From positions 1-63,315 of the forward strand of contig CAZOTE010000002.1 of the NCBI GenBank assembly GCA_964582705.1: a DNA stretch of 63,315 nucleotides. Reading direction: 5' to 3'. The notes beneath the pieces were generated by a model, which saw nothing but the letters and a program-made list of their open reading frames with translations, was not told where the DNA came from and did no database searches. This stretch comes from an uncultured Eubacteriaceae bacterium. Its GTDB lineage: Bacteria; Bacillota; Clostridia; Eubacteriales; Alkalibacteraceae. This document shows positions 8,159-17,332 of this stretch, piece by piece (within the stretch, counting starts at the first letter, position 1; every line of letters begins with the position of its first letter). A program made the position numbers and the translations under genes.

Positions 8159-8235
8159 TACTTTCTACCCATCGTGTTCCTTTAATCCAACAAGGGACAT
8201 TATCACATTTTCCGTGATTTATCACAAAAAAAATC

Positions 8236-9030
8236 TCAAGTCTTAGACTCGAGATTTTTTTCCAATAGGATTTGTTTTCTTTTGAATTTTTCGTATTTCA
8301 CATACATTATCTCTATTACCAAATAGTATATGATTAGAGATTCGTAAGGTGGTATGCTGGAATCATCCAACAAGTTGAATTGATATGGCGTTATATATAT
8401 TTTTTCAGTGCTCAAGCTTGCTAGGGTATTGTCTTTAAGTCTTGTTATCGAAATAAATGGTATCTCCCTTAATTTCAGCTCTCTGGCCATCTTTATGACT
8501 TGCTGGGACTCTCCATCCAAGGAAACTATGATGAACAGGTCGTCCTTAGTCAGCCTTTTGGACAGCAGATTGAATTCGGCATTTCCCTCAAGGATGTAAA
8601 TTAGGTCTCCTCCGTTTACGAAAAGTCTTTTAATTTCATTTACGACATTTTTTTGTACAAAACCAGACCCATATCCGATTACCCTTTTGGCTTTATAAAT
8701 AAGCCTGCACACTGATGTAAAATCCTTATCTGCCATCTCCTCGGCGACTCTTTTATAAAGACCTAGCAAAGCCTTTACTTCATCAATTTTTTCTTCTTTT
8801 TGACTGCCTGATTCCATTTTTAAAATTGCTTTTAATTCACTGTAACCGTCTAAGGATATCTTTTTTGCAAAGCGAAGTATCGTTGTTCTCGATACACAGC
8901 AATGATCCGCCATTTCATAGATAGACATGGTCTTGCATTTTTCTTTATTGTTATATATGAACTGCCAGACCTGAAGATCTGTTTGGTTTAATTGCTCCCG
9001 GTATTCGTTAACAAGTTCTTCAAGCTTCAT
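8236..9030 (-). CDS. glvR: MurR/RpiR family transcriptional regulator
   Basis: HTH SRTTILRFAKKISLDGYSELK plus SIS domain (IIVSLDGE); beside glvAC; start placed at MKLEELV. Confidence 0.85.
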   Translation of the reverse strand: MKLEELVNEYREQLNQTDLQVWQFIYNNKEKCKTMSIYEMADHCCVSRTTILRFAKKISLDGYSELKAILKMESGSQKEEKIDEVKALLGLYKRVAEEMADKDFTSVCRLIYKAKRVIGYGSGFVQKNVVNEIKRLFVNGGDLIYILEGNAEFNLLSKRLTKDDLFIIVSLDGESQQVIKMARELKLREIPFISITRLKDNTLASLSTEKIYITPYQFNLLDDSSIPPYESLIIYYLVIEIMYVKYEKFKRKQILLEKNLESKT

Positions 9031-10724: not shown

Positions 10725-12128
10725 TCAGTAGACTCTTCTTCCACTGATGTATTTTGCTCTCCAATACGCTGTATTGATTGAAGTTATTTCAACTCTTCTT
10801 CCTGGCCTAGGTGAGTGAATCATGTTGCCGTTTCCTACGTAAATACCCACATGACCTGAAAAAACAACTAGATCTCCAGGCATCAAATCGCTTTTCGCAA
10901 CGAATCCTCCGACGCTTCCCTGCCCTCCGCTGGTTCTAGGAAGACCTATGCCCAATTGTCTGAACACATACTGTGTGAAACCGGAACAATCGAAACCAGC
11001 TGGCGTCGACCCTCCACTTCTATATGGCGTTCCAAGGTACTGCCTTGCAGTAGCTACTATCGAAGAACCCAGATTAGACTTATATGATGAAGCCGAAGTT
11101 ACTCTCGATGCAGTTACCACCGGTCTTGATTTGGTGCCTTCAAGCACTATCTTGGCAATTGGTTCAGCTATTACCTTTTCGCTTATAACCTTTGATTTTT
11201 CCGCTACTCCATTTATGTATAGAACTTCTTTTGTTACTTCCTTTTCGCCGTTCTTGCCTTCCTGCTCTACCTTCGTTTGTCCGATATACAAAGAAGAATC
11301 CTTTTTCTTCTCGGTGGCATATGATACTTTTTCACTGACGGTCTCTTTTACCATCGCTGATACGTCAAGGAATGGTTTTTCAACGCTTAAATTTATAGTG
11401 TCTCCCGGCATCAACTCTTCAAGGTTTTTATCAGGATTTGCCTCTTCCAAGCTTCTCAAGCCAGTTCCGTACGACCTAGAAATTGTCCAAGCTGAGTCAC
11501 CTTGAGCCACCTTGTATGTCTGAATTTCTTCTGTATTTGCATTAACTCTTTCAAGTGCGTCAACTTCATCAAGTATCAAATCCGCTTGAACATTTTTTAA
11601 TATTACTTCTACATCTTGCTCAAATGCTATGTCTAGAACCTCGATATTATTCGCTGACCCGGCAAGTCTTTCAATATATGGTTTTTTCATTTGTTCCAAA
11701 ATTTCATTAGCTTCCTCGACAGTCGCTAGAATAAGCTTTTCTTCTCCGTCAACCATAATGACAGCCGCTTCCTGGAACACCTGAATATTTTCTTGCAATG
11801 CATTTGTTAAGCTGTCAATTTCCAAAGTCGAGCTTTTATCCACTCTCACTTTTTCGAAGGTTATTTCCTTTTCATAAAAAAAGTCTTCACCGTACTGATC
11901 TATAAGCTGTCTTTCGATTTCAGCCAATGCATCTTCAACCATCATTTGCTCTGATACATAACCCAGGTCCTGACCATTGAAGTACAGCTGATAAGAAAAG
12001 CTGTTTTGGTAGGTCAATACTCCTATAGCTATGGTCGCGGTAATGGCACCAGATACTGCCAACGCCTTTGCTCTGTCTTTTAATTGCCATGTCTGTACAT
12101 CTACTGTTTTCATCCAGTTTTTGTTCAT
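10725..12128 (-). CDS. Membrane-anchored peptidoglycan endopeptidase (LysM + G5 + NlpC/P60)
   Basis: N-terminal TM, YKVAQGDSAWTISR LysM, G5 (EQEGKNGEKEV), GFDCSGFT...HVGIY...MIHS catalytic motifs. Confidence 0.9.
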   Translation of the reverse strand: MNKNWMKTVDVQTWQLKDRAKALAVSGAITATIAIGVLTYQNSFSYQLYFNGQDLGYVSEQMMVEDALAEIERQLIDQYGEDFFYEKEITFEKVRVDKSSTLEIDSLTNALQENIQVFQEAAVIMVDGEEKLILATVEEANEILEQMKKPYIERLAGSANNIEVLDIAFEQDVEVILKNVQADLILDEVDALERVNANTEEIQTYKVAQGDSAWTISRSYGTGLRSLEEANPDKNLEELMPGDTINLSVEKPFLDVSAMVKETVSEKVSYATEKKKDSSLYIGQTKVEQEGKNGEKEVTKEVLYINGVAEKSKVISEKVIAEPIAKIVLEGTKSRPVVTASRVTSASSYKSNLGSSIVATARQYLGTPYRSGGSTPAGFDCSGFTQYVFRQLGIGLPRTSGGQGSVGGFVAKSDLMPGDLVVFSGHVGIYVGNGNMIHSPRPGRRVEITSINTAYWRAKYISGRRVY

Positions 12129-12227: not shown

Positions 12228-12501
12228 ACTTTTAAGGCTTTTTAGTTTCTTCATAATAATGAGGAATTTTCAGATCAAGTTCAATAACTGCTTTTTCTTA
12301 AGACTTGCAGAAGGGTGTTCGTTATTTTTTTGATATTAACTCAATCATCGTAACTCTAATCGTTATTTTGAACAACAAAGACCGGTTTTTTCATCATTTT
12401 CTATATATCTACTTAGTCATTTTAACTATATAATAATCTCTGTCGGAAATTGGTTAATTAAATAACTATCAGACAATTTGTTAATAAGAGAGGGGATACT
12501 C

Positions 12502-14037
12502 ATGAAGAAAAATGGAATCAGCCGTAGAGATTTTATTAAGGGCGCAGCCGCAGGGACAATCGGCGTGGCTGCAATGGGCGTATTAGGAGCCTGTTCCCAA
12601 GGAGCCACATCTGTTGACGACATCAATTGGGACAAGGAATCAGACGTCGTCATAGTAGGCGGAGGTGGTACAGGAGTAGCAGCAGCCGCACAGGCAGCCA
12701 TGGACGGGGCTCAAGTATTAATCCTTGAAAAAGCAGGCATCGCTGGAGGAACTACCAATTATTCCGGAGGAGTAATGCAAGCTTCTTCGACAAAGTATCA
12801 AAAAGAATTTACAGACTTTAAAGACGATACTCCTGAAAAACATTTTCAGCTTTGGCTTAAAGCAGGCGAAGGTCTGGTAGATGAAGATCTTGTAAAGGAT
12901 CTTGCATACGGAGCACCTGATCATATTGAATGGTTATCTGATATGGGACTTAAATTCACTAGCGTTTATGGTCACAGCGATATACCTTATATAGACAAGA
13001 ATTTGTTCGCAGACAGAATACACGTCTATGAAGGTGGCGGCGGCCATGGCGGCGGCGTTCCGATGGTTAACGCAATGTTGGATTCAGCAGTAGCAAATGG
13101 AGCTGTCATAGAATACAACACTGAAGTTACCGAACTTATAACAAACGACAATGGAGAAGTAATAGGCGTCGTGGCTAACCAAGATGGTAAATCCATAAAT
13201 GTAAAAGCAAAAAAAGGCGTAATACTCGCTTCTGCAGGAATCGACAACAACAAGCAAATGGCAAAAGAACTTGCACCACAACAATACTGGGCTATAACCA
13301 ACGGAGTACCTATGTGCGCAGAAACAGATACTGGCGATGGAATCAGGATAGCCATGGAAATTGGAGCTTCAGTATGCGGCTTTGGCGGAACTATCGACTT
13401 TTGCGGTAAAACCGGCGCTTCAACCGACAATAGGGTGCCACACTTCCCCGCTTTCATTGTTAACGGCAAGGGAAAAAGATTTGTTAATGAAGATGCTACG
13501 TACGCTTATCATTACAGAGCGATTTTTCAGCAGGAAAGCCAATTAGATGCTCCTACATACATGATATTTGGAGAAAGCAGCCTTTCAGATGAATTTGCAA
13601 GATGGAACAAAGAGAGTCTCGATAAGGATATAGCAGAAGGAACAGTGATACAAGGCAATACAATAGAGGAATTGGCTGCAAAGATAGAAGTTGATTCCGC
13701 CAACCTAGCTGATACTTTGGCAACATGGAATAACGAAGCTGCTAATGGAAAAGACAATCAATTCGACAGAACGACTGGATTAAAAGCAATAACAGGACCT
13801 TTTTATGCTTACAAAAATACTGCTTTCAACCTGGGAGCCATCGGAGGAGTAAAGATCAACACCGACGCTCAGGCTATTGATACAAAGGGCGAGATAATAC
13901 CAAGGCTGTATGCTGGCGGATTAAATGCCGGAGGCTGGATAGGACCATACTATCCAGGATCAGGCACTGCTATAATCGGTACAGTACATTGGGGCCGAAA
14001 AGCCGGAGCTCACGCCGCTAAGCTGACTTCCCTTTAA
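12502..14037 (+). CDS. Tat-exported lipoprotein FAD-dependent oxidoreductase (FAD_binding_2 / flavocytochrome c flavoprotein / KstD-like)
   Basis: SRRDFIK twin-arginine motif, LGAC lipobox, DVVIVGGGGTG, GGTTNYSGG, TGDGI, RFVNE, RLYAGG motifs; ATG after GAGGGG RBS. Confidence 0.9.
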   Translation: MKKNGISRRDFIKGAAAGTIGVAAMGVLGACSQGATSVDDINWDKESDVVIVGGGGTGVAAAAQAAMDGAQVLILEKAGIAGGTTNYSGGVMQASSTKYQKEFTDFKDDTPEKHFQLWLKAGEGLVDEDLVKDLAYGAPDHIEWLSDMGLKFTSVYGHSDIPYIDKNLFADRIHVYEGGGGHGGGVPMVNAMLDSAVANGAVIEYNTEVTELITNDNGEVIGVVANQDGKSINVKAKKGVILASAGIDNNKQMAKELAPQQYWAITNGVPMCAETDTGDGIRIAMEIGASVCGFGGTIDFCGKTGASTDNRVPHFPAFIVNGKGKRFVNEDATYAYHYRAIFQQESQLDAPTYMIFGESSLSDEFARWNKESLDKDIAEGTVIQGNTIEELAAKIEVDSANLADTLATWNNEAANGKDNQFDRTTGLKAITGPFYAYKNTAFNLGAIGGVKINTDAQAIDTKGEIIPRLYAGGLNAGGWIGPYYPGSGTAIIGTVHWGRKAGAHAAKLTSL

Positions 14038-14041
14038 TATG

Positions 14042-14082
14042 TTGTTGCTGAGAAGATTCTCTTTGGTCTTCTCAGCAATAAT
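14042..14082 (+). terminator. Long intergenic stem-loop after reductase gene (stabiliser or leaky terminator)
   Basis: TTGTTGCTGAGAAGA...TCTTCTCAGCAATAA; no U-tract on the plus strand. Confidence 0.55.
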
Positions 14083-14112
14083 AACAAGTATGAAACGAAG
14101 GAAGGTTTTATT

Positions 14113-14454
14113 ATGAGAATCGGTACATCGGAATTAATAGTGGTATTAATAGTAGCTTTATTGGTCCTTGGACCTGAAAAGCTCCCCTTTTATGCAAAGA
14201 AATTGGGTGGGGCTCTAAGCACGATAAAGAACTATACAAATGATTTTACACGCGAGATCAACGAAAACATACTAGAACCGATCTCAACAATCAAAGAACC
14301 ATTAGATAATGCTGCGAAGCCTTTAAGTAATCTAGCTGAAGAAATCAAGGCTCCGTTCAACGAAGCAAAAATGTCTGTTGAAAAAATTGGGCATACTGAC
14401 GAAGAGAGCTTTCAGATAAAAACAACGGAAAAGAATGCAGTGGATAACGTTTAG
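14113..14454 (+). CDS. tatB: Twin-arginine translocase TatB-like subunit
   Basis: IGTSELIVVLIVALLVLGPEKLP TM-hinge with LGP, long amphipathic helix, 113 aa. Confidence 0.75.
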   Translation: MRIGTSELIVVLIVALLVLGPEKLPFYAKKLGGALSTIKNYTNDFTREINENILEPISTIKEPLDNAAKPLSNLAEEIKAPFNEAKMSVEKIGHTDEESFQIKTTEKNAVDNV

Positions 14455-14483
14455 TAAAAATAAGGATAAAAAAGGAGAATCCC

Positions 14484-14651
14484 ATGTTAGGTAGAATCGG
14501 CACATCCGAACTATTGATAATTTTAGGAATCGCATTAATAATCTTTGGACCAAAACAGCTCCCAAAACTTGGCAAGACATTTGGTTCAACACTAAAGAGC
14601 TTTAAAGATGGAGTAGATGGCGATACAGAAGGTAATGAAGAAGAAAGCTAG
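14484..14651 (+). CDS. tatA: Twin-arginine translocase TatA (55 aa, absent from ORF track)
   Basis: AAGGAG RBS; translates MLGRIGTSELLIILGIALIIFGPKQLPKLGKTFGSTLKSFKDGVDGDTEGNEEES; FG hinge and FK motif. Confidence 0.92.
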   Translation: MLGRIGTSELLIILGIALIIFGPKQLPKLGKTFGSTLKSFKDGVDGDTEGNEEES

Positions 14652-14668
14652 ACTAGGAGTAGATTGAT

Positions 14669-15427
14669 TTGAAAAGGAAGAAGATCAGAAAAAAATCTAC
14701 CAAGGAAGTCATGGGCATAGTTGATCACCTTGGGGAAGTACGGAAAAGACTGTTTACAATTATCGTAGTCTTCTTTATTTTTGCAATTGCCAGCTTTAAT
14801 TACGCTGATGATCTGGTCAATATTTTGATTGAAAATTCAAAGAACCTGGGCTATTTTTTGGTATATCTAGCTCCTGGAGAATTATTCTCACAATATATTA
14901 AGGTTTCTTTGATATTAGGAATCACACTTTCTTCACCTGTGATATTGTTTCAAGTATGGGCTTTTATCAAGCCTGGGCTAAAAAAAGGTGAAAAAGCATC
15001 TGTTTTTCTCTCGCTTTTTTTCGGGTTGGCATGCTTTTTAATAGGAGCAGCATTTGCATATCTGATAGCAGTTCCCATGATGCTTAATTTTTTCATGACC
15101 GTTGACCAAAACCAGATTGTATCGCCGACAATATCCATACAAAATTATATAGGCTTCGTACTGTCGACACTGCTGACATTCGGCATTGTGTTTGAAATGC
15201 CTGTAGTGACAGTCTTGCTTACACAACTGGGTTTGATCAAGGCTGAATGGCTTGTTAAAAGCAGAAAAGTGGTAATAGTAATGCTATTTTTAATTGGAGC
15301 CCTTATCACTCCTCCTGAAGTAGTATCACAAATTCTTGTTGCAGTTCCCATGCTCTTGCTTTTTGAAATCAGCGTTATATTAAGCAAATTGATAGGCAGA
15401 AAAAAGAGAATAAAAGAAATGACATAA
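14669..15427 (+). CDS. tatC: Twin-arginine translocase TatC
   Basis: DHLGEVRKRL, WAFIKPGLKKGE, FEMPV, ITPP motifs; multiple TMs. Confidence 0.95.
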   Translation: MKRKKIRKKSTKEVMGIVDHLGEVRKRLFTIIVVFFIFAIASFNYADDLVNILIENSKNLGYFLVYLAPGELFSQYIKVSLILGITLSSPVILFQVWAFIKPGLKKGEKASVFLSLFFGLACFLIGAAFAYLIAVPMMLNFFMTVDQNQIVSPTISIQNYIGFVLSTLLTFGIVFEMPVVTVLLTQLGLIKAEWLVKSRKVVIVMLFLIGALITPPEVVSQILVAVPMLLLFEISVILSKLIGRKKRIKEMT

Positions 15428-15447
15428 TATAAATTAAGGAGATTAAA

Positions 15448-15801
15448 ATGAAAAGAACTAAATTTATGATATTATCAGTTATATTAATTGCGGTATCGGC
15501 CATCACCCTTGGTTGTGGGTCATCAACGGCTGTCTACACTGACGGAACATACGAGGGAACCAGCGATGCAGGAATGCATGAAGGCCTGAAGGTTTCAGTA
15601 TCAGTGAAAGATGGGAAAATTTCTGAGGTCAGCATAATTGAACATGATGAAACCGAAGGAATCGGTACATCAGCATTCGGTCCTGTCACGGAAGCAATTG
15701 TAGATGCACAATCAACAGATGTTGACTCTGTTTCAGGTGCAACAAAAACATCAAATGCCATCAAAGAGGCAGTTGATGGAGCCCTTGCTCAAGCAAAATA
15801 G
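15448..15801 (+). CDS. FMN-binding (flavinylation) domain lipoprotein
   Basis: Lipobox ITLGC; YTDGTYEG, HDETEGIG, DVDSVSGATKTS (ApbE-type SGAT site). Confidence 0.88.
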   Translation: MKRTKFMILSVILIAVSAITLGCGSSTAVYTDGTYEGTSDAGMHEGLKVSVSVKDGKISEVSIIEHDETEGIGTSAFGPVTEAIVDAQSTDVDSVSGATKTSNAIKEAVDGALAQAK

Positions 15802-15823
15802 TAATGAAGCGTTGGCAATTAAT

Positions 15824-17332
15824 TTAACCAACGCTTTTTCTTTTCAGTATCTGCATAGATATGTGCATATGCCTGCACATTTTATTGTCATCCAGTGAAA
15901 TTCCCAGGATTTCTTCAATTTTTTTTAGTCTGTAGTTCAAAGTATTTCTGTGAATGTGCATGATCTTTGAAACTTCATTTATATTTTTATAACATTCAAG
16001 ATAAGCCTCCAGTGTTTCTGAATAGCTGGTATGGTGCTCTCTGTCATATGCTACTAATTTATAAAGCCCAGGATATATAAAAATTTTTGAATTCAAGCTT
16101 TTATTGATTGTCTTAATAAAATGTTCTTCAAAAAAATCATTGTAATAATGCAGTTTCCCCTCTTCTCTTCTTACGCCAAATCTATATGCAGCTTTTGCCT
16201 GCTCGTAGTAAACTGTGGATTCTGAAAGCTCATAGAACTTATCGCTTATACCGCAATCTAGATCAAATTTCCTCAAAATAGAATTAATTCTTTCAATCGA
16301 TCCTTGAATCTGATTCCCATAGAATAGAAGCACGATATTTGACTCGTGGACAGTCGCCTGTGCATAGGGTAGCTCTAACATTATATCCTCCTGAAGATTC
16401 TTTAAAACCGAAAGGTTGAAATTGTTGATATCAAATGGAATGTTTACTATCTGATATGGAGCTTGCCAATTAAAATTACCGATTTTGAATGCATGATCAA
16501 TCTTTCCGCTATCATAAACATCTCCTTCGATTAGATTCGAAAGGAATGTCTGTTTGTATGAAATGCTTTCGTCGTTAGGTGGGTTGGTCTCCAATATCAG
16601 ATTGAGCACTATCATGCTCAGGGAATTTACGATTTCCAAATCGATCCTTATGAATTTTTCATAAGACTCAAGAACTCCTATCACTCCGAAAAAACGTTTT
16701 CCGTCAGATATCTTCCTGGCGATTCTTCTGAAATTTTGAGCAAATCCCCAGTCGAGATAAAACGGAAAGTTTCTTTTTAAAGTCTCTATCTTAGTATTGT
16801 CAGATTCGATCTGGTTCATAAGCTCTTGATCGGCATATCCTTTCTCCCTAATTGAATCCCATACAGGTTCATTTAATTTTTTGTCCGGGTACAATTCAAC
16901 TAGTCTATATCTGGAGTCGGTTACCGTAATAGGATTTTTTAAATATTTGAATGTAATCTCCAATATTCTCCTCATATCAGATTTGTTCAAAATCGCTTCA
17001 AAGACTTCGCTTCTATACAGTACAAGCTTATTCTCTTGTTCCAGTAGCTCCTTTATGATTTTAATGCTTGATTTTAAAAAATCTCTATCTACTATTATAA
17101 AATTGCATTCACAACCATACTGGCAGTGAACCGGCTGGTCCGATATGATTATCATACCACCCAACCTTTGTGTAAATTCTTCCGCTTTTCCATAATATAT
17201 AGTTCTTGAGTCCTTCTCTTTTGAAAATTCAGAAACATGACAAATTTCATTGATATCCCTATCCCTCACTTGGATATCAATGAAATCAGTTCTAAAGCTC
17301 TCAAGATGATTTAGTATATTCTCAATCTTCAC
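15824..17332 (-). CDS. PucR/CdaR family transcriptional regulator
   Basis: C-terminal HTH MHIHRNTLNYRLKKIEEILG, GISD GGDEF-like region, YDREHHTSYSETLEAYL; GTG start with GGAG RBS. Confidence 0.9.
   Translation of the reverse strand: MKIENILNHLESFRTDFIDIQVRDRDINEICHVSEFSKEKDSRTIYYGKAEEFTQRLGGMIIISDQPVHCQYGCECNFIIVDRDFLKSSIKIIKELLEQENKLVLYRSEVFEAILNKSDMRRILEITFKYLKNPITVTDSRYRLVELYPDKKLNEPVWDSIREKGYADQELMNQIESDNTKIETLKRNFPFYLDWGFAQNFRRIARKISDGKRFFGVIGVLESYEKFIRIDLEIVNSLSMIVLNLILETNPPNDESISYKQTFLSNLIEGDVYDSGKIDHAFKIGNFNWQAPYQIVNIPFDINNFNLSVLKNLQEDIMLELPYAQATVHESNIVLLFYGNQIQGSIERINSILRKFDLDCGISDKFYELSESTVYYEQAKAAYRFGVRREEGKLHYYNDFFEEHFIKTINKSLNSKIFIYPGLYKLVAYDREHHTSYSETLEAYLECYKNINEVSKIMHIHRNTLNYRLKKIEEILGISLDDNKMCRHMHISMQILKRKSVG

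Follow-up and report, generated by a model that had tools for sequence, protein, structure and literature searches.

A movable 5-kb block predicted to encode a Tat-exported flavoenzyme, its own Tat translocase, and a flavinylated electron carrier in an uncultured Eubacteriaceae bacterium

RESULTS

A six-gene block encodes a flavoenzyme, TatBAC, a flavin carrier, and a regulator

We analyzed a 63,315-nucleotide (nt) stretch of DNA from an uncultured Eubacteriaceae bacterium (GenBank assembly GCA_964582705.1, contig CAZOTE010000002.1), referred to here as the window, and focused on six genes at positions 12502 to 17332. An initial annotation, made from the letters alone, described these genes as a cassette for an exported flavoenzyme, a twin-arginine translocation (Tat) system, a flavin mononucleotide (FMN) carrier, and a convergent PucR-type regulator. 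Using open reading frame (ORF) calls, Pfam and NCBIfam profiles, and motif reading, we found all six ORFs, with profile hits, and all of the motifs (SRRDFIK, LGAC, and DSVSGAT) in this interval. The features are as follows.

12338..17323, unstranded: whole gain/loss unit (promoter, five plus-strand genes, and nearly all of pucR), missing in relative G004 between its flanks
12362..12375, +: conserved upstream box, a candidate PucR-type activator site, ending 51 nt before TATATAAT
12427..12434, +: predicted -10 element TATATAAT, kept in five promoters (window, L027, L030, L031, and L032)
12451..12468, unstranded: palindrome 3' of the -10 element, candidate operator of Rex (NADH/NAD+ sensor), 3 mismatches to a clostridial consensus
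12502..14037, +: FAD_binding_2 flavoenzyme, 511 aa from an ATG behind a ribosome-binding site, Pfam E 9e-54
12520-12540, +: Tat motif SRRDFIK of the enzyme (S7-R8-R9-D-F-I-K13), read from the sequence
12592-12594, +: Cys31 of the enzyme lipobox L28-G-A-C31, read from the sequence
14040..14083, +: strong hairpin between the enzyme gene and tatB, without a U-tail, -25.4 kcal/mol, z -8.8
14113..14454, +: tatB, TIGR01410 59.1 bits (cutoff 56.5)
14484..14651, +: tatA, TIGR01411 58 bits (cutoff 53.9)
14669..15427, +: tatC, the sole copy found in the genome, TatC E 9e-63
15448..15801, +: stand-alone FMN_bind lipoprotein, 117 aa, FMN_bind (PF04205) E 7e-17
15742-15744, +: Thr99 of the carrier in DSVSGAT, the predicted ApbE flavinylation site, read from the sequence
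15806..15846, +: terminator-like hairpin with a T-run, shared with the end of pucR, -13 kcal/mol, z -3.7 (+) and -4.4 (-)
15824..17332, -: PucR/CdaR-family regulator, 502 aa, PucR C-terminal HTH_30 E 8e-19

The five plus-strand genes are separated by gaps of 17 to 75 nt. Enzyme, tatB, tatA, tatC, and carrier form one predicted operon with a promoter and an end hairpin. The hairpin at 14040 is likely a transcript stabilizer or partial stop; in 9 of 10 other cassettes, the enzyme-tatB junction also has a hairpin, unlike in sequence (scored against mononucleotide shuffles). A generic promoter scan performed at chance level (24 found versus 18.2 expected); it picked up neither the conserved promoter nor the end hairpin. 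The GC content of the block gave no sign of a genomic island. The source genome (G000; our handles for genomes, loci, and contigs start with G, L, and C) comprises 2.47 Mb and is 89.75% complete, with about 10% missing. It probably belongs to Alkalibacter, since G003, of the same genus, produced a match identical to that of the named Alkalibacter mobilis locus L030.

The block is present or absent as a unit

The proposal that these genes form a portable module is supported by a clean absence and by a spirochaete copy. Genome G004, which is 100% complete, matches the window at 93 to 95% on both flanks and lacks positions 12338 to 17323, with the flanks joined 2 nt apart. The absent block comprises the promoter, enzyme, tatBAC, carrier, and PucR, the carrier being missing together with the enzyme, and we found no enzyme ortholog, tatC, PucR, or Tat signal in G004. 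G004 still carries the first 9 nt of pucR, and G002, a more distant relative, has the block in the same place; both points make loss in G004 the simpler reading. In G003, the block is at another genomic position. The divergent gene for a LysM-G5-NlpC/P60 cell wall peptidase (10725-12128, minus strand) is kept in G004 and therefore lies outside the unit. Farther upstream, 170 nt around the end of an RpiR-like gene (8195-8364) did not align to G004 while their flanks did.

The tatC of an Oceanispirochaeta cassette grouped with the Bacillota cassette tatCs (98/88, 12 rows), apart from two spirochaete stand-alone tatCs. Forcing the three spirochaete tatC rows together gave a marginal result in the approximately unbiased test (p-AU 0.039), for a group named after the first tree was seen. 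A second Oceanispirochaeta genome (L038) has a TetR gene and the enzyme in the same setting, without tatBAC and the FMN lipoprotein gene, which together we call the kit.

Linkage of the enzyme to tatBAC and FMN genes recurs among orthologs

A GTDB scan returned 38 ortholog loci (46 to 90% identity), 30 of them non-fused and 8 from longer Lactobacillales forms. We found tatBAC after the enzyme in 10 of the 30 non-fused loci. Nine have the FMN gene after tatC, and the tenth (L032) has it upstream. The order enzyme-tatB-tatA-tatC-FMN in nine other genomes, with L032 as a tenth and a spirochaete included, shows linkage beyond chance. L036 ends too early to judge tat linkage, leaving 29 informative loci. 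An FMN_bind gene adjoins the enzyme in 13 of 30 loci. Co-occurrence with PucR as well proved to be lineage-specific: PucR is adjacent only in L027 and L030. The kit-bearing enzymes in our tree, which took in 7 kit-bearing locus rows and the window but not three near-identical Youngiibacter rows, all fall in one 12-row subclade (SH-aLRT 99). The four kit-less members of this subclade (L036, L038, L041, and L049) have tatC elsewhere in the genome.

The long Lactobacillales form lacks a signal peptide, has an N-terminal FMN_bind domain (Pfam tested in 2 of 8, L056 and L062), and is nested inside the enzyme clade; the FMN motif of L063 is degenerate. By its predicted domains, the long form joins in one fused protein what the cassette encodes as two. 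This fusion, together with L032, in which the same promoter stands before the FMN gene, supports the annotated link between carrier and reductase. The signal-less fusion occurs in Lactobacillus delbrueckii and relatives (L056-L063), belongs to a cluster of 269 members, and is fragmented in L059. In L040 (3220-4332), a 370-aa protein with a nitroreductase-like N-terminal part (named by eye) and a C-terminal FMN_bind domain is encoded directly upstream of the enzyme.

We also found kit genes with other enzymes. At L131 (G006:C4:610-5584), tatB, tatA, tatC, and an FMN lipoprotein gene follow the gene for another PF00890 enzyme with a Tat signal (560 aa, 28% identical), and a PucR-type gene is divergent. 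Other PF00890 enzymes occur with tatBAC and LysR-like genes at L107 and L132, and an FMN lipoprotein accompanies a Tat enzyme at L133. At L134 (G006:C80:55172-58638), a Tat-signal succinate dehydrogenase-like flavoprotein and an Fe-S subunit are followed by tatB and tatA, with no tatC. The L131, L107, L132, and L133 enzymes lie outside the window's clade in a tree that did not contain L134. Judged by gene order, the kit is modular, as the same kit also stands behind an unrelated flavoenzyme. Among 22 paralogs examined in Holdemania filiformis, an FMN domain was present in 14 of 18 without the twin arginine and in 1 of 4 with it.

The enzyme has a Tyr-type active site

In an alignment of 30 sequences, Tyr334, Tyr484, Gly488, Asp299, Trp479, and Asn443 were invariant, and no Cys was. 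The active site consists of Tyr334 and Tyr484-Pro-Gly-Ser-Gly488. Tyr334 aligns with Arg402 of Fcc3 (1jrz) and with a Tyr of 4AT0, Tyr484 sits at the Arg of the GxNRxG motif, and the His504/His505 positions of Fcc3 are Leu444/Gly445. The Fcc3 dicarboxylate site consists of His365, Arg402, His504, and Arg544. We rejected a fumarate reductase identity (Fcc3 or FrdA) on the replacements of Arg402 by Tyr334, of His504/His505 by Leu444/Gly445, and of the GxNR Arg by Tyr484. The TIGR01813 score was 233 bits, below the cutoff of 285. Urocanate reductase (UrdA) was rejected because Tyr occupies both active-site Arg positions in the alignment to 6T85.

The enzyme model had a predicted local distance difference test score (pLDDT) of 88, and its best structural match was 4AT0 (template modeling score, 0.79; 28% identity). 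Tyr334 and Tyr484/Ser487 align with chain residues Tyr339, Tyr486, and Ser488 of 4AT0, so the pattern of a catalytic Tyr and a C-terminal Tyr-x-(x)-Ser/Gly is present. The catalytic residues of 4AT0 are presumably Tyr319, Tyr466, and Ser468, with a 20-residue offset to the chain numbering. Steroid dehydrogenase/reductase models scored far under their cutoffs (NF009478, 204 versus 789 bits; NF005882, 157 versus 788), and no NCBIfam enzyme model, KstD models included, reached its cutoff. To judge from these residues, the predicted Tyr-type site suits α,β-unsaturated carbonyl substrates and is found in reductases and dehydrogenases alike. In Little et al. (bioRxiv 10.1101/2022.12.26.521950), Tyr at the Arg position marks non-Arg cinnamate reductases.

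The enzyme clade comprises 482 proteins at E<=1e-100, with orthologs in only 3 of 401 phylum genomes at that threshold. We found no paralog in the enzyme's own genome, and an ESM Atlas search with homolog P0002 returned merely generic FAD-oxidoreductase clusters. In the literature searched, none of six ortholog accessions was named in a paper. A complex prediction for the enzyme (38-511), FAD, FMN, and the carrier (28-117) scored 0.07 and was not used as evidence either way.

The ortholog in H. filiformis, WP_006059876.1, is 62% identical to the window enzyme. We rejected it as CirA, CirC, or CirD, as its 511 aa are too short for the numbering of Y634, Y511 (the catalytic Tyr), and R716; it may still be CirB. 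None of 21 H. filiformis ORFs (21 regions, part of 34 hits) matched these proteins by residue number. BaiJ type 2 of Holdemania was rejected as the ortholog because it has a different accession, WP_006060009.1.

The Tat system is likely dedicated to the enzyme

The Tat signal of the enzyme was above cutoff with TIGR01409 and slightly below it with Pfam TAT_signal (20.6 versus 22.7), and the S/T-R-R-x-F-L/I-K motif, h-region, and lipobox are all present. The twin arginine is kept in 25 of 26 full-length orthologs, with one RK. An R-K variant was seen in the ortholog of a spirochaete metagenome-assembled genome (L041:7001-8509), which kept the FMN gene and not the tat genes.

A scan of the source genome gave one tatC and one TIGR01409 hit, the enzyme, both inside the block. 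A Tat regular expression matched 8 of 3267 ORFs, of which the sole credible one was the window enzyme. The scan agrees with the annotated dedicated Tat system, and we conclude that TatBAC is likely private to the enzyme in this genome. Patchiness of Tat in Clostridia, also asserted earlier, was supported: with the window TatC as the query, tatC was found in 12 of 399 genomes, which is a lower bound. Among relatives, 8 of 41 have tatC.

We tallied Tat signals against tatC loci in 18 genomes. The numbers were equal in G001, G002, and G003 (one each), in G008, G051, G058, G059, G060, and G062 (two each), and in G004, G070, and G076 (zero). G057 has one of each, with tatC unlinked. Tat signals exceeded tatC loci in G005 (2:1), G006 (3:2), G052 (5:1), G056 (11:1), and G066 (16:1). 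All 30 genomes that carry the non-fused enzyme have tatC, versus 0 of 8 with the signal-less FMN-fused form and a background of 12 of 399 in Clostridia. An additional tatC lies beside the enzyme in genomes that have another tatC (G006, G008, G051, and G058-G062). In G002 (L027:9160-9923), tatC is split into ORFs of 183 and 71 aa by a frameshift or an assembly error, and the RR signal of the enzyme is intact.

The carrier and its possible electron supply

The carrier has a lipobox (LGC, Cys23), the SGAT motif with Thr99, and no twin-arginine motif, as in secreted FMN_bind proteins with [S/T]GA[S/T]. The annotation had called for a scan for apbE and electron donors. We found one lipoprotein ApbE, on contig C71, and candidate donors in an Ndh2-like ORF at a contig end, MenA-type and UbiA prenyltransferases, a polyprenyl synthase, and Rnf. 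None is linked to the cassette. The PplA model matched only below cutoff, and a NapH-type donor, with a single marginal match, was rejected. apbE was present in 21 of 21 genomes tested, the cassette-less G004 included.

Parts resembling the extracellular electron transfer system of Listeria were seen elsewhere in G000. They lie on C71 (6602-10775), C30 (44-4813), C41 (8177-9136), and C106 (2215-3048) and comprise apbE (on C71), a gene for a 291-aa repeat lipoprotein with an AGVT site, an Ndh2-like gene divergent from apbE, a NusG II/HepS/polyprenyl synthase/UbiD/UbiA/UbiX-like cluster, a MenA-type gene, and a PplA-like lipoprotein gene.

No cytochrome c assembly protein (PF01578) was found in the incomplete G000 or in G002, G003, and G066; G058 has one. 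No CxxCH protein with a heme c domain, or cytochrome partner of the Fcc3 kind, was present among 2188 ORFs.

Candidate regulatory sites precede the operon

PucR orthologs (41 to 70%) occur only in G002, G003, G005, and G006 among 40 relatives, and PucR adjoins the cassette only in the window's genus (L027 and L030, the latter the A. mobilis locus). In the window, L027, L030, and L031, a GT-N5-7-GMMCAA box precedes TATATAAT at a distance of exactly 51 nt. L032, which was held out when the pattern was made, carries this box before its FMN gene, again with the 51-nt spacing. The box with this spacing occurs once in the source genome, and PucR and the box co-occur in 5 of 5 genomes. PucR is therefore a plausible candidate activator in this lineage, as the box is shared by the five PucR genomes, though PucR is remote in G005 and G006. 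At L051, upstream of 6986, a divergent PucR-type gene and a GCACAA-ended box about 55 nt before TATAAT looked window-like by eye and were not matched by the pattern.

PucR as a clade-wide regulator was rejected. In 14 of the 24 loci scored, a TetR gene lies upstream of the enzyme in the same orientation (Pfam confirmed in 3 of 3; two loci were left out of the scoring), and its operator is different. A GARACA-N12-TGTYTC palindrome is present in 11 of 14 TetR loci versus 0 of 11 other promoters; the pattern was derived from 4 of the 11 loci carrying it. The annotated role of PucR as module regulator is plausible for the five genomes with PucR and the box and not for the loci with TetR upstream.

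The clostridial Rex consensus used for the palindrome at 12451-12468 was afterwards compared with Table 5 of PMC5886521. rex is present in the source genome, and better Rex-like sites precede AdhE-like and hydrogenase-like genes (named by eye). The palindrome is weak alone because 90 intergenic sites in the genome score equally well.

DISCUSSION

A proposed surface reductase and its alternatives

Taken together, these data make it likely that the 5-kb all-or-none block is a surface respiration add-on, in which an exported, anchored FAD enzyme takes electrons from the carrier and reduces the C=C bond of an organic compound. According to this model, the enzyme would fold and load FAD in the cytoplasm, cross via TatBAC, and be tethered through Cys31. 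The carrier would leave by Sec, be tethered through Cys23, and be flavinylated at Thr99 by the genome's single ApbE. Electrons from NADH may arrive via a Listeria-like chain (the Ndh2-like gene divergent from apbE, MenA-type/UbiA, and the polyprenyl synthase) or via Rnf and would pass from the carrier FMN to the enzyme FAD. A hydride from FADH- would then go to the β carbon of an α,β-unsaturated carbonyl (enone, lactone, ester, or cinnamate-like), with Tyr334 protonating and Tyr484/Gly488 holding the carbonyl. Given an inducer, PucR would act at the 12362 box to activate the promoter, and Rex might free the promoter at high NADH. Our preference for reduction rests on the hosts being anaerobes and on the flavinylated carrier, the genes of the Ndh2-like and quinone type, and the candidate Rex site.

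Several observations weigh against this model. The nearest solved structures with such a Tyr site are dehydrogenases (4AT0, KstD, and cyclohexanone dehydrogenase). The counts of one tatC and one Tat signal come from a genome that is only 89.75% complete. Tat systems of this kind can be shared, since one tatC faces two Tat signals in G005 and sixteen in G066, and the 0 of 8 for the fused form amounts to about one event because all eight genomes are kin, all Lactobacillales. ApbE does not discriminate, as it was found in all genomes tested, G004 too. Neighboring tat genes are lacking at 19 of 29 informative loci (with tatC elsewhere) and an adjacent FMN gene at 17 of 30 loci, so an ortholog need not have the kit. 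The PucR ortholog lies 12 to 19 kb from the cassette in G005 and G006, in G005 directly before another FAD enzyme. The Rex-like palindrome has 3 mismatches in the window and 2 to 3 in L027, L030, and L031.

The opposite direction has some claim but is unlikely. In that case, a surface dehydrogenase of the 3-ketosteroid or cyclohexanone type would desaturate a ketone and pass electrons via the FMN carrier into the quinone pool. The best profile and fold matches are 4AT0 and KstD/cyclohexanone dehydrogenase structures, and Tyr334 and Tyr484/Ser487/Gly488 fit the positions that we take to be catalytic in those enzymes. However, the hosts are anaerobic with an Ndh2-like NADH-to-quinone route, a candidate Rex site is present, and no NCBIfam KstD model reached its cutoff. 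Moreover, Tyr-site family members in anaerobes are reductases (BaiP/BaiJ, the Cir enzymes, and Cgr2).

We regard as improbable, too, a detoxifying or scavenging reductase (e.g., of plant enones or lactones) that would gain no energy and to which the carrier would only supply electrons. The patchy gain and loss fits this idea, as does the persistence of a signal-less, probably cytoplasmic form in lactobacilli. However, Holdemania and Eggerthella grow better and make more ATP with related exported reductases (bioRxiv 10.1101/2022.12.26.521950), and the candidate Rex control also speaks against it. Detoxification overlaps with the surface respiration model, with the operon, export/anchoring, and electron transfer steps common to both.

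It is very improbable that the tat and FMN genes are housekeeping neighbors by chance and that PucR belongs to something else: related tatBAC operons do stand alone in Holdemania, most orthologs lack these neighbors, and PucR is remote in G005 and G006, but the genes are jointly absent from G004, a second tatC lies beside the enzyme in eight genomes, the promoter moves with the FMN gene in L032, and FMN-enzyme fusion proteins exist.

A broader proposal, for which we see about even chances, is that tatBAC and the stand-alone FMN lipoprotein are a swappable export-and-wiring kit that serves various flavoenzymes with various regulators (PucR, TetR, and LysR), crosses phyla, and is dropped where the host already has Tat.

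Comparison with known systems

Overall, the module would work like flavinylated extracytosolic reductase systems; its apparent new elements are a three-part Tat of its own, a carrier split from the enzyme, and regulators that can be swapped. Méheust et al. (2021; PMC8238504) list 3070 proteins of the fused type, as well as 189 clusters in which the FMN gene stands separately beside a fumarate reductase-like gene; the words "twin" and "secretion" do not occur in the main text. The annotated suggestion that the arrangement may be undescribed therefore falls for the separate FMN gene. It stands for the tat operon: a search that did not extend to subscription journals turned up no paper on a flavin reductase that comes with a dedicated tat operon and an FMN carrier. 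Further related work includes PMC10979944, PMC8837199, PMC9645264, and bioRxiv 2024.12.12.628284 and 2025.08.20.671209.

The Listeria FrdA type, as described in PMC8238504, shares a PF00890 enzyme, a lipid anchor, FMN_bind with SGAT, and ApbE and Ndh2/quinone genes elsewhere. In contrast, the FMN domain of the window is a separate lipoprotein, and the enzyme has a Tat signal and its own tatBAC and lacks the fumarate residues. Eggerthella lenta Cgr1/Cgr2 (Koppel et al. 2018, PMC5953540) likewise combines a Tat-signal PF00890 enzyme with a separate electron carrier gene, and a Tyr-x3-Gly lies near both C termini (Cgr2 Y532/G536; window Y484/G488; compared by motif only). However, the window carrier is an FMN lipoprotein rather than a cytochrome c, tatBAC is its own, and Cgr2 needs a [4Fe-4S] cluster whereas the window enzyme has no invariant Cys. 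Respiratory flavin reductases of clades 2 to 4 from Holdemania and Eggerthella (bioRxiv 10.1101/2022.12.26.521950) share the Tyr replacing a conserved Arg and the neighboring regulators. Unlike the linked tatBAC of the window, one stand-alone tatBAC serves 16 Tat signals in Holdemania.

The 3-ketosteroid Δ4-(5α)-dehydrogenase 4AT0, KstD1, and BaiP/BaiJ resemble the window enzyme in fold and in the aligned Tyr and Tyr/Ser positions, but it is far below the family cutoffs and carries a Tat-lipoprotein signal. TatAdCd/PhoD of Bacillus subtilis is also a Tat operon devoted to certain substrates, and it can operate alongside a second Tat system (PMC13673990). In contrast, the window Tat has three components, is packaged with a redox carrier, and stands behind different flavoenzymes. 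In Clostridia, tatB was counted 7 times versus 29 tatC in Table 1 of PMC3827258.

The block would join a substrate-dedicated Tat system and ApbE-flavinylated electron transfer in one small movable unit. It also suggests how respiration of organic compounds may be acquired by fermenters that have no Tat or cytochromes. If the kit is indeed swappable, a single transfer of 5 kb would equip a fermenter lacking Tat and cytochromes with a new respiration, and the kit's cargo here would be an uncharacterized clade of Tyr-type enzymes, which gut Clostridia, Holdemania, and lactobacilli also commonly have. With a single PF00890 enzyme of this kind, a single Tat system, and a defined promoter, the source genome offers a clean model for finding the substrate of this widespread clade, and the near-sister genome without the block is a natural control. 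The block also lets one ask what makes Tat necessary for some flavin reductases when those with a fused FMN domain mostly go by Sec.

Other tat loci were seen in the course of this work. L124 (G001), L065 (G033), L111, and L112 have a different tatAC with an aldehyde:ferredoxin oxidoreductase-like cluster (names by eye). The Fe-S subunit of this cluster bears a Tat signal, making it a second one-Tat-per-cargo cassette in the same group. At L108/L109 (3262-9699), tatAC lies beside HepS-like, NusG II-like, and ApbE-like genes (names by eye) and a gene for a 498-aa Tat-signal protein.

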